Shown: in pieces, positions 3,001-6,000 of the stretch
Layout: each line of letters begins with the position of its first letter
Position numbering within the stretch: the first letter of the stretch is position 1
Virus record (IMG/VR): IMGVR_UViG_2537561510_000012
From: a virus
Taxonomy: Duplodnaviria; Heunggongvirae; Uroviricota; Caudoviricetes
Length of the DNA stretch: 7,245 nt
Direction: 5' to 3' (one strand)
Made by a program: the position numbers

Positions 3001-6000
3001 GCAACTGGTTGTCGCAGTGCCAGCACAACACCATTGCGCCGGTACCATAACGGTGAATGACGGTTTCACTGTGGTGATAATCGCCGTGTGGCCACTGGCA
3101 GGATTTAACATGGCGCAGTAACCAGTCAGACAGTGCGCCAGCGCCACCAGCAGCACGAATCACTCGTTCGTCGCTGAAAAATGGCAGTAATGATTTATCC
3201 TCCGCCAGCGGCTGGCGAACGGCAGGAACGACCCCGGACGGCAGATTACGCATGCTTTTCGGTTCCGGCTCCACCAGTACCCGGGTATTGTGGAATACCG
3301 GCATGGATTCACGGCCCGGCTTAACGATCACCAGCCCGAGTTCCGGTACCAGAACAGGTCGAAGTAATACCCGCACGTTACCTCCAGATGCGTTGCTGGA
3401 ATGTGCGGGACGGACGCGGTGGGCGTTCGGAGTAAGGAAGCCTGACGGAGATTATCCAGTGACGATAATCGAGACTGAGGGCTTTCTTAACCTCGTATCC
3501 GCGCCTGCGGTAACACTGAATCAGCCATTCAGCCTGTTCTTCGGTGCAGGGGTCGTGCTGATACCAGTCAGATTTGAATGCATGAGAACGCCGCCCGTGC
3601 CTGCTGGCAGGGGCGGCAGAGTTATCCGAATTGTAAAATTTGGTATCGTGCGCCATCTGTTTTCTCTGCTGGCGCAGCAGGTGCCAGTTGTTCAGGCTGA
3701 CGGATGGATTGTAAACCAGAACGACCAGAAAAAACAAAACCCGCCGAAGCGGGTTAAGTGCGGGTGCGTTGAGGATGCCTGACACATCAGCGGTGGCGAG
3801 GGATTTCTCCCCCGCCTGGTCTCTTACTCCTCAGGTTCGTAAGCTGTGAAGACAGCGACCTCCGTCTGGCCGGTTCGGATTCGTACCTCGCAGAGGTCTT
3901 TCCTCGTTACCAGTGCCGTCACTATGACGGTTAAACAGATGACGATCAGGGCGATTAACATCGCCTTTTGCTGCTTCATAACCTGCTTCTCCTTGCCTTT
4001 CGGCGCGTAAGAGGCTAACCTACGTTTGTGAAGCATAGATTGGGCCTCAGATTAATGTTAAGCGTCTTGCAGGACGCGTAATGTTAACTGGGGCTTTTCT
4101 CTGTCTGCCTTACGGTGGCATGCCCGAGGCAGACAGCCTCAAGCACCCGCAGCAATTCTACTTAACTCTCGCTTTACAGCAAACCGTTTTGCCCGATATG
4201 GGAATTCCCATACGGAATGAATTCAGTTCCCCAGGCGCTCCATCAAAAACACAACCAGGCAGTAAACACCCACAACAGCAATAACAGCCAGAGCGCCTTC
4301 CATTACCAGTGAAATATCATCCGACATATTCCCTCCCTTGGTGTGAATCCCGGCGAACGTTTTTACCCCCACCGACAAATAACATATACTAGAAAAGCAA
4401 TAGCTATAGCAACGCCTGCAAATGCATCTGGCCGGCTCATTGGTTCTCCCCCTGTGTCGCTTCTACTGCGATCTGACTGGCGTATTCGTTAATGGTAACG
4501 ATAAGTTCTTGCTCGGCCTCATCCAGACAACTACCGATACCTCGCCTGTCCACTTCAGAAGCATCGAAATCTGCACGAAGCCTGGCGACCTTCAGGATTG
4601 CGGACAACACCTCATCAGGGATTGCCGGAGAGTTGGTTGACGTTTCCGAGATTATCCGAAAATTATTGGTTGACGAACCCTTATTTTCCCGAAAGTTTCC
4701 AGCCTGAAGCATGGCGGCGCGGTGACACCAGATAATCCAGCCAAGCGCCATATCCCATGCCATGTATTCTCTATCGCCATTTTTTGCTCTGCGGCGATCT
4801 ACAGATTCCCCGAAACGCTTCTCCATAAATAATTCATAGGCTGCCCGTTCATCCGATACTGATGCCAGTGATGCCAGTGCAATTTTTAATGCGGTAAGCA
4901 TGTTGTTTTGATCTTCATCGAGTCCGAACGGTATTTCATCCCGTGATGACTCAATTCCGGTAATCGTGTTCTGTAGCCATTCTTTGGTTAATTCAGTCAT
5001 TTTTCACTACCGCCCTTTCGGGCGGTCTCCTGATGTTCTGAGGGTGCAGGAATCCCTCCGGTTAAGGATTTAATAAAAATCATTTCTGATTTAAATTTTC
5101 AGTGTTTAGTTGTTGGTTTATAGCCTTTATGCTTCGGCCTTATTTCTCAGCCATACACAAACAGGACCATCTTCGGTGTCATGTATCGAACCGATAAACC
5201 ATCCCTCACCTTCTGGTCGCTCAGGTTCCCATGCTGAAATATCAGGGCCATCTGCGTCCAGATTAAAATCATCTTCATCCATACTACGGATAGCCCACTG
5301 AAGATTATTTTTCTCCATCCAGGCGTTAAACTCTTCCGTTGAAATATATTCCCGACCATCACAGAATTTTTCATATTCAGGATGCGTCCAGCAGCCATAT
5401 TCATTACGTTCCACTGGCATTTCTTTAATTACGCTCATTTACCCCCCTTATTTAATTTTCTACGACACTTTTTACAATCATCTGGACTTTCGAATGTATC
5501 CGGCTCACGCTCATTGCCAAAATACATCCACCCACCGCAAATACTTGTTATTTCACCTTCAGCAAAATAATGATGTTTTTTCGCCATAAGTGACCTTGCC
5601 CAGCCCGGATTCGTTTTACTCACTTGTTGCCTCCTTTGCGAAGCTCTGCGACTAACTCGTCACATATGTGCGTCAAAGAGCAAAGTTTGATTGCTGGATG
5701 TTCGCGCACCATCTCCACACCCTGCGCCCGCAATTCTGCCAGAAAAGCGTAGGGGTCAGTTTTTTCACTGTGGTACATGGCATCATAGATAATCATTGCA
5801 GCGACACCTGCCTGTCCTGCATCTGTGACGGATATATGCTCAAGGGCTACGGCCATTGCGTGTTTCAACCTCTCATTTTCCACCTCAAGCACCACACGAT
5901 TAGCCTCCAGCTCTTCTATGCGTTTTTTTGCTGCTCCCAGCTCAACACGCAGCTCCTGATAGTTAATCTCGCTCATTCTCCTTCCTCCCGCACTGCTGTT

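Follow-up and report, generated by a model that had tools for sequence, protein, structure and literature searches.

AcrZ, MgtS, MgrB, KdpF and CydX are membrane proteins of about 30–50 residues, each with one transmembrane helix. They are produced from ordinary open reading frames (ORFs) driven by a Shine-Dalgarno (SD) sequence, their expression is harmless, and they bind a larger membrane protein. Known type I toxins are usually basic. The morons of lambdoid phages are units of promoter, gene and terminator that are placed between conserved genes. A detailed comparison with these systems will be made here for sORF2, a gene for a 34-residue membrane peptide on the minus strand of a 7,245-nucleotide (nt) stretch of viral DNA (Caudoviricetes; IMG/VR record IMGVR_UViG_2537561510_000012). 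The entire stretch will be referred to as the window. sORF2 is located just upstream of a hok/mok/sok toxin locus, and it is under purifying selection. It would appear to travel with hok/sok in one cassette, and it probably functions as a non-lethal membrane peptide.

A relative of sORF2 has been described in Escherichia coli O157:H7 Sakai. This paralogue, XECs145 (now ECs_5710, prophage Sp6), is 91% identical to the sORF2 peptide, with differences at 2 residues, and it was reported as a novel translated ORF (Huecker et al. 2017, PMC5597208). In lysogeny broth (LB), its transcriptome and translatome values are 79.1 and 346.1 reads per kilobase per million (RPKM), respectively, with a ribosomal coverage value (RCV) of 4.35 and a coverage of 0.99. 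In brain heart infusion (BHI), the corresponding values are 121.3 and 150.1 RPKM, with an RCV of 1.14 (PMC5597208, S2 Table). In healthy cells, XECs145 ranks with the better-translated of the novel ORFs (PMC5597208). That study used an over-long start for XECs145, giving 54 residues, and hence recorded no SD sequence.

The sORF2 gene and its product

sORF2 covers positions 4223-4327 of the window (minus strand, stop codon included). Its ATG is at 4327-4325 and its TGA at 4225-4223, and the product is MSDDISLVMEGALAVIAVVGVYCLVVFLMERLGN. An SD sequence, GGGAGGG, is located at 4331-4337 on the same strand, and 4 nt separate its GGAGG core from the ATG. A preliminary description of this DNA had noted a 34-residue minus-strand ORF with a near-consensus SD sequence, and this assignment is confirmed. 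Most other loci have AAGGAGGG as the SD sequence, and a second allele of the gene (type 2, see below) has AGGAGG. When the start codons of the window that are followed by at least 20 codons are tallied, GGAGG is found at −16 to −4 for 9 of 345 candidates, and at least 5 of these 9 are annotated gene starts in the near-identical reference prophage.

The ORF was initially regarded as unlisted, which is correct only for the gene track supplied with the window. The exact coding sequence is annotated by the Prokaryotic Genome Annotation Pipeline (PGAP) in a 100% identical locus of the reference prophage record (NZ_AP018488.1), as hypothetical protein WP_001278460.1 of RefSeq. The protein is also listed in UniRef (A0A0K4ZJX7) and is present on at least 1000 contigs. 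sORF2 is therefore not new, being an annotated hypothetical protein that has already been reported as translated. Literature searches found no paper text that mentions the peptide, its WP or YP accessions, ECs_5710 or XECs145.

The peptide has a single hydrophobic segment, with a best 19-residue Kyte-Doolittle mean of 2.72, and a net charge of −3. The shape of a membrane peptide that had been recognized at the outset is thus retained. Judging from its sequence, the peptide is expected to insert as one transmembrane helix, with the conserved core ALA..AV..YCL..L-M-[D/E]-R-L. Profile scans with Pfam, PHROGs, NCBIfam and PADLOC gave no credible match for this peptide, for the product of sORF1 (a second small ORF upstream, see below) or for a fused form of the two. 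The Hok/Gef profile (PF01848) does not match the sORF2 peptide, whereas it matches the neighboring ORF with an E value of 3e-23. An exhaustive phmmer search of 1.84 billion representative proteins found six matches only, all of them close relatives, and no distant homologue of known function.

Of 5426 complete E. coli genomes, 674 carry DNA homologues of sORF2, at 1468 places in all; the median number per genome is 2 and the maximum 5. The carriers are mostly of O157:H7, O26, O103, O111, O145, O55:H7 and O104:H4. A species-level genome scan finds sORF2 in Escherichia and Shigella only, apart from contigs that are probably mis-binned. The family is narrow and confined to lambda-like prophages of Escherichia and Shigella, and it has no characterised member.

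Alleles and coding selection

Altogether 97 loci were gathered for comparison, and 88 of these carry the form of sORF2 found in the window (type 1, 34 residues). Type 1 has seven nucleotide alleles. They show synonymous changes at seven sites (with two different ones at codon 5), a swap between TGA and TAA at the stop codon, and three conservative replacements, V8A, I16V and E30D. The gene is intact in all 88 copies.

The type 2 form has 29–30 residues and starts with GTG behind AGGAGG. It is found in phages Tritos and mEp460_ev081, in E. ruysiae, in Shigella flexneri and in three short metagenome contigs. A tblastn search against phages found the type 2 phages Tritos, mEp460_ev081 and Evi only, although the low-complexity filter probably hid exact matches; Evi is known as a carrier from its tblastn match alone. 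The proteins of the two types are about 50% identical and can be aligned over ALA..AV..YCL..LM[D/E]RL with no gaps, despite many synonymous differences between the genes.

The substitutions are concentrated on third codon positions, which account for 7 of the 10 variable sites among the type 2 alleles and 14 of 20 in the pooled alleles (binomial p = 9e-4). In the frame of sORF2, 13 changes are synonymous and 7 non-synonymous, while the other frames never exceed a ratio of 10 to 10. For the window allele and the most frequent type 1 allele, the ratio of non-synonymous to synonymous divergence (dN/dS) is 0.12; for types 1 and 2 it is 0.35. These measures agree in direction, and together with the ribosome profiling (Ribo-seq) data for XECs145 they allow the coding status of sORF2 to be regarded as settled, as a genuine gene under purifying selection. 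Variation of the kind that the preliminary description would have taken as refutation, with a frame free of selection, is thus not seen.

Linkage of sORF2 to hok

The mok and hok reading frames are located at 3824-4036 (minus strand), with a hokD-type Hok at 3824-3979 (PF01848, E = 3e-23; PGAP name hokD). The hok mRNA leader and the sok region, at 3974-4148 (minus strand), match Rfam family RF01794 with 114.9 bits (E = 2.4e-26), and the leader starts near 4148. The likely hok promoter, read from the sequence at 4155-4182 (minus strand), consists of TTGCTG (4182-4177), a 16-nt spacer and TAGAAT (4160-4155), and an equivalent promoter, TTGGCG-17-TAGAAT, was detected in phage Tritos. The stop codon of sORF2, ending at 4223, is upstream of this promoter, about 40 nt from its −35 element, and sORF2 is therefore outside the RF01794 model. 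The location of the ORF beside a bona fide hok, as originally proposed, is borne out by these results.

Homologues of sORF2 are consistently found next to hok. Of the 90 copies for which the downstream sequence is long enough, 85 have a hok ATG no more than 260 nt from sORF2 (243–246 nt for type 1 and 211 nt for type 2), in support of the synteny that the preliminary description had proposed to examine. In 3 other copies, nothing but a tandem duplication of sORF2 (O55:H7 strain TB182A) or an insertion sequence (IS) separates the two genes. The final 2 copies, from S. flexneri (locus L009) and a metagenome (L096), have lost hok and have an intact sORF2. The duplication in E. coli O55:H7 TB182A (L005, positions 1623-1834) is 107 nt long and places two copies of sORF2 before hok, the second of which starts with TTG and does not have a good SD sequence. 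Two viral contigs (L015 and L065, about 1600-2950) carry the IS in the interval from sORF2 to hok, and it encodes a 362-residue transposase with an integrase core.

The type 2 allele is directly 5′ of hok in Tritos, mEp460_ev081 and E. ruysiae. Its loci are homologous from a point about 200 nt before sORF2, to the left of which five unrelated contexts are found. These 200 nt form a conserved non-coding leader (L007, 2300-2495, and the equivalent regions of L008–L013), with an inverted repeat, TCCGCT...AGCGGA, at the junction with the left context. The leader may hold a cassette promoter, TTGAAT-17-CATATT (8 of 12 consensus matches). On the other side, the hok module ends at its terminator, followed by at least three different right contexts. 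In the window, the right edge of the cassette is at this intrinsic terminator (3738-3755, minus strand). No other terminator is predicted from the gene for a 187-residue protein, upstream of sORF1, to the end of hok, including the interval between sORF2 and hok. Given the shared left and right edges, the adjacency to hok and the lack of a predicted terminator between the two genes, the leader, sORF2, hok/sok and terminator look like one mobile and probably co-transcribed cassette. A weak Rfam match to the Hfq-binding small RNA isrK (3734-3815, minus strand; 27 bits, compared to a gathering score of 50) spans the 3′ end of hok and the terminator.

A 16-bp perfect palindrome, TATGGGAATTCCCATA, is located at 4197-4212, between the stop codon of sORF2 and the −35 element of hok, with its center about 57 nt upstream of the predicted hok start. 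It is the sole palindrome of at least 12 bp in the window, where 0.11 would be expected at 16 bp. Of the 88 type 1 loci, 87 retain the palindrome, and it is absent from type 2 loci. It might serve as an operator or form an RNA hairpin.

The association is not obligatory for hok. The PPompW phages have only the last few codons of sORF2 before an intact hok, and in the Qin prophage of E. coli K-12 relBE is at the position otherwise held by sORF2. Hence, hok does not need sORF2. In phage PPompW_132418 (L095, 1490-1560), the 3′ end of sORF2, the palindrome and hok are left, and the remainder is replaced by a paa/adfO adhesin gene. This replacement is the footprint of a moron insertion into the cassette.

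Possible functions of sORF2

In the window, sORF2 is the second of two tandem small hydrophobic ORFs that close a string of early-region genes. The first of these, sORF1, starts on the stop codon of the upstream gene, and sORF2 has a strong ribosome-binding site of its own. The sORF2 transcripts most likely run into hok/mok, since no terminator is predicted before hok, and would end at the hok terminator, so that leader, sORF2, hok/sok and terminator would move as a single cassette. The product is probably a non-lethal, single-pass inner-membrane peptide that is co-expressed with hok and makes helix-helix contacts. This putative function is that of an accessory or modulatory peptide rather than of a toxin that kills through the membrane. 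Hok, encoded by the same cassette, would be the leading candidate for its target, with the qualification that hok and sORF2 each occur without the other.

Several observations weigh against this assignment. A consensus scan of the window found no sigma-70-like promoter directly upstream of sORF2. The selection statistics are indicative only, as they are based on small allele sets (7 type 1 and 5 type 2 haplotypes) from related loci. Purifying selection and a single transmembrane helix would fit a toxin equally well, and high ribosome occupancy is compatible with a weak or conditional toxin. The published occupancy, which bears on the Ribo-seq check that had been suggested for the ORF, is that of XECs145, a paralogue with 91% identity, and the assignment of its reads is ambiguous in a genome with several sORF2 copies. 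Finally, type 1 and type 2 loci share about 94% identity in hok, starting at its −10 region, compared to about 50% in sORF2. Hence, recombination homogenised hok independently of sORF2, and such different histories weaken the case for a specific partnership with Hok.

A stronger version of the partnership would make sORF2 a functional third component of the hok/sok cassette that modulates Hok directly, for instance as a buffer against leaky Hok in lysogens or as a timer of its action in lytic release. Both alleles have stayed adjacent to hok despite a synonymous distance (dS) of about 0.9 between them, the unit from leader to terminator is found in at least five left contexts (for the type 2 loci) and at least three right contexts, and the interval between the two genes has no predicted terminator. 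Moreover, the 3′-end remnant of sORF2 beside hok in the PPompW phages implies that the ancestral cassette included sORF2. On the other hand, hok functions without sORF2 in K-12 Qin and in PPompW, the hok of plasmid R1 also works without it, and sORF2 is intact at the two loci where hok has been lost. Identical Hok proteins are found beside sORF2 alleles that are only 50% identical, which gives no sign of co-evolution. The hokW-sokW locus of Sp5 has been reported to aid phage release, although the report does not mention an upstream ORF (PMC8621323). Direct modulation of Hok is accordingly rather unlikely.

In a broader version, the prophage hok/sok loci of pathogenic E. coli might be three-part cassettes, in which a co-transcribed and constitutively translated sORF2, possibly with sORF1, acts on the Hok protein, for instance as a membrane buffer or timer, a proposal that we regard as doubtful. 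If true, control by a protein would come on top of the RNA-only control that is assumed for this system. sORF2 is common, being present in about one in eight complete E. coli genomes, often in 2–5 copies and mostly in Shiga-toxin-producing lineages, and it is translated in the lysogenic state. Its steady placement before hok/sok raises the question of whether a small membrane peptide tunes an RNA-controlled toxin or prophage release.

The preliminary description had named a second small toxin as one possibility, and sORF2 itself could in principle be a small membrane toxin of the type I or holin-like class. It is short, has one hydrophobic helix, is carried by a prophage beside a type I toxin and is under purifying selection. 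Weak promoter-like matches are present on the opposite strand in other loci: L003 has TTGCCA-16-CATATT over the start codon, and Tritos has TTAACT-18-TAAAAT at the 3′ end. Read-through antisense transcription from the sok side has been reported at the related Sakai locus XECs166. However, the promoter-like matches are at noise level (3–4 compared to 1.5–2.2 expected) and are not common to the alleles or the window, where a consensus scan found no antisense promoter over sORF2. No Rfam antitoxin covers sORF2, and no Rfam family is found over 4223-4440. The SD sequence is strong and unsequestered, with no unusual mRNA structure, and the RNA folds of 4215-4445 and 4290-4400 are no better than those of shuffled sequences (z = +0.78 and −0.62). 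In addition, the peptide is acidic, it matches neither Hok/Gef nor another toxin or defence family, the paralogue has an RCV of 4.35 in healthy exponential cells, and a tandem duplication of sORF2 is tolerated. The exposed SD sequence, the unremarkable fold, the lack of a convincing antisense signal, the acidic charge, the high occupancy of the paralogue and the tolerated duplication argue against sORF2 as a type I toxin, and a toxin of any of these classes is improbable.

Two other candidates for control of the gene were considered. A riboswitch-like or SD-sequestering leader is ruled out by the folds, which do not exceed those of shuffles. Terminator-like hairpins inside the ORF in L003 and L007 were examined as attenuators. 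They are weak, arise from runs of hydrophobic codons and are not called in the window, and they are not taken as attenuators. Searches for repeats and complementarity found nothing that links sORF2 to the RNA elements of hok.

sORF1 and the possibility of a fused gene

sORF1 is an unannotated 25-residue hydrophobic ORF, MSRPDAFAGVAIAIAFLVYVICRWG, at 4363-4440 (minus strand). Its ATG overlaps the stop codon of the gene for the 187-residue protein (ATGA), and an SD-like sequence, GGGGGAG, is located at 4446-4452 (minus strand), 5 nt upstream of the ATG. In loci where a DUF551 gene is upstream instead, this sequence is AGGAGGT, the ATGA overlap is kept, and the product has 27 residues due to an in-frame 6-nt insertion/deletion (indel). 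sORF1 is intact and has the ATGA overlap in 85 of 87 type 1 copies. It is not called by PGAP and is absent from the ORFs listed in the 2017 Ribo-seq study. In one locus (L006), it is interrupted by an IS5 element (ISKpn26).

Coding selection on sORF1 is not conclusive, with about 5 synonymous and 9 non-synonymous changes. Its last 42 nt are invariant, third codon positions included, which hints at a constraint at the nucleotide level. A promoter-like sequence, TTTACC-17-TATACT, is found in this block (4362-4390, plus strand). Its orientation is antisense, toward sORF1 and the 3′ end of the gene for the 187-residue protein, and it is a chance-level match.

The region upstream of sORF2 had been viewed as regulatory in the preliminary description, but it is occupied by sORF1, which is another small membrane ORF. 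The promoter proposed there, TTGCTA...TATATG, is inside sORF1, has an 18-nt spacer and a −10 element that lacks the T at position 6, and fails the consensus scan. The window has 18 palindromes of 8 bp, where about 28 would be expected, and gctatagc (4403-4410) is among them; it is not preserved in 24 of 88 homologous loci. Neither element can be retained as a signal.

sORF1 and sORF2 are not evident paralogues, since BLASTP found no similarity between their products. They could instead be two halves of one 74-residue membrane protein with two helices, split by a frameshift with re-initiation at sORF2, or joined again through a low level of −1 slippage. In the −1 frame, sORF1 can be read into sORF2 without a stop, and a run of five G (4366-4370, minus strand) is just ahead of the sORF1 stop codon. 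One extra G here joins the two ORFs in rare database entries, and one extra base in a T run further upstream has the same effect in other alleles. In-frame fusions of this kind, with one extra T or G in the homopolymer runs, are known as three database proteins (P0005, P0008 and P0009), and a metagenome locus (L096, 1575-1582) has six G and an unbroken 74-codon ORF. A potential slippery sequence, T-TTT-TTA, is in the sORF1 frame of 56 of 85 type 1 loci.

However, the window has TTTTCTA here, which is not slippery. A frameshift site with a conserved slippery heptamer and a structure at 5–9 nt was not found, the nearest hairpin being 15 nt away. All 87 type 1 copies with the anchor block (of 88 examined) keep the five-G run and the sORF1 stop codon, type 2 loci have no sORF1, their leader being non-coding by a 14-nt indel, and sORF2 retains its own strong SD sequence in every allele. 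The AlphaFold2 model of the 74-residue fusion shows two helices with low confidence (predicted local distance difference test, pLDDT, 66.9; predicted template modeling score, pTM, 0.35) and does not support a packed hairpin. The fusions are rare (2–5 members each) and may be homopolymer sequencing errors. Because the 87 type 1 copies have five G and the stop codon, and type 2 loci lack sORF1, the fusions are treated as errors or rare mutants, and a split or rejoined gene is very unlikely.

The idea that the frame of sORF2 is not functional as a protein, and that its conservation reflects hok regulatory DNA, read-through transcription or the act of translation, draws on the flanking non-coding DNA, which is conserved at least as well as sORF2 within type 1, and on the invariant 42-nt block of sORF1, but it is hardly credible in view of substitutions clustered on third positions and synonymous in this frame only, type 1 and type 2 proteins that align gap-free despite many synonymous differences, a stop preserved across the TGA/TAA swap, and published ribosome footprints for the paralogue.

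The prophage in the window

The part of the window from 2080 to 7245 matches a lambda-like prophage of E. coli O157:H7 strain PV15-279 with 99.9% identity. All genes are on the minus strand, in the order of replication and early-region genes, the gene for the 187-residue hypothetical protein (4437-5000), the sORF1/sORF2 region, hok/mok/sok (3824-4148), a rem-like gene, DUF968 and rusA. The gene at 4437-5000 is a variable neighbor of sORF2. The upstream gene is a DUF551 gene in most loci and is absent or divergently oriented in type 2. As the upstream protein varies or is absent, the suggestion that sORF2 is its membrane partner is unsupported.

The match to the reference prophage ends at 2080 (junction region 2057-2085), within rusA. 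The Q antiterminator, the tRNA genes and the 3′ end of rusA are absent from this copy, in which rusA abuts the interior of an ORF for a SASA-family esterase (784-2076). For these reasons, the window copy looks like a deleted, defective prophage.

Comparison with known systems

The results that are new are modest: sORF1, two ancient alleles of sORF2, the cassette behavior with hok/sok, and a conserved 16-bp palindrome before the hok promoter. The closest relatives of sORF2 are the hypothetical proteins ECs_5710/XECs145, WP_001278460.1 and WP_001278454.1, which belong to the same family, WP_001278460.1 being the identical protein. Like sORF2, ECs_5710 is in a lambda-like prophage at a position 5′ of hok/mok, and it is reported to be transcribed and covered by ribosomes. 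The linkage to hok, the second small ORF and the diverged allele, described here, were not noted in the 2017 Sakai study.

The enterobacterial type I toxins (Hok/Gef, Ldr, Ibs, TisB, ShoB and ZorO) are similar to sORF2 in size and in having a single hydrophobic helix, and sORF2 is on a mobile element beside one of them, Hok. There are clear differences, however. sORF2 has no sequence match to these toxins, no detected antisense RNA and no SD-sequestering leader, it has a net acidic charge, and its paralogue is strongly translated in growing cells. In comparison, sORF2 resembles AcrZ, MgtS, MgrB, KdpF and CydX in its size, its single helix and its SD-driven ORF, and it would share with them harmless expression and action on a larger membrane protein, although it has no homology to them and is carried by a prophage rather than the core genome. 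The overall organization of the type 2 form is similar to that of a moron, as a discrete unit with a leader of about 200 nt, sORF2, hok/sok and a terminator in several unrelated flanks. The type 1 unit of the window differs from morons in having no recognisable promoter of its own and in being fused, through sORF1, to the end of an early-operon gene.

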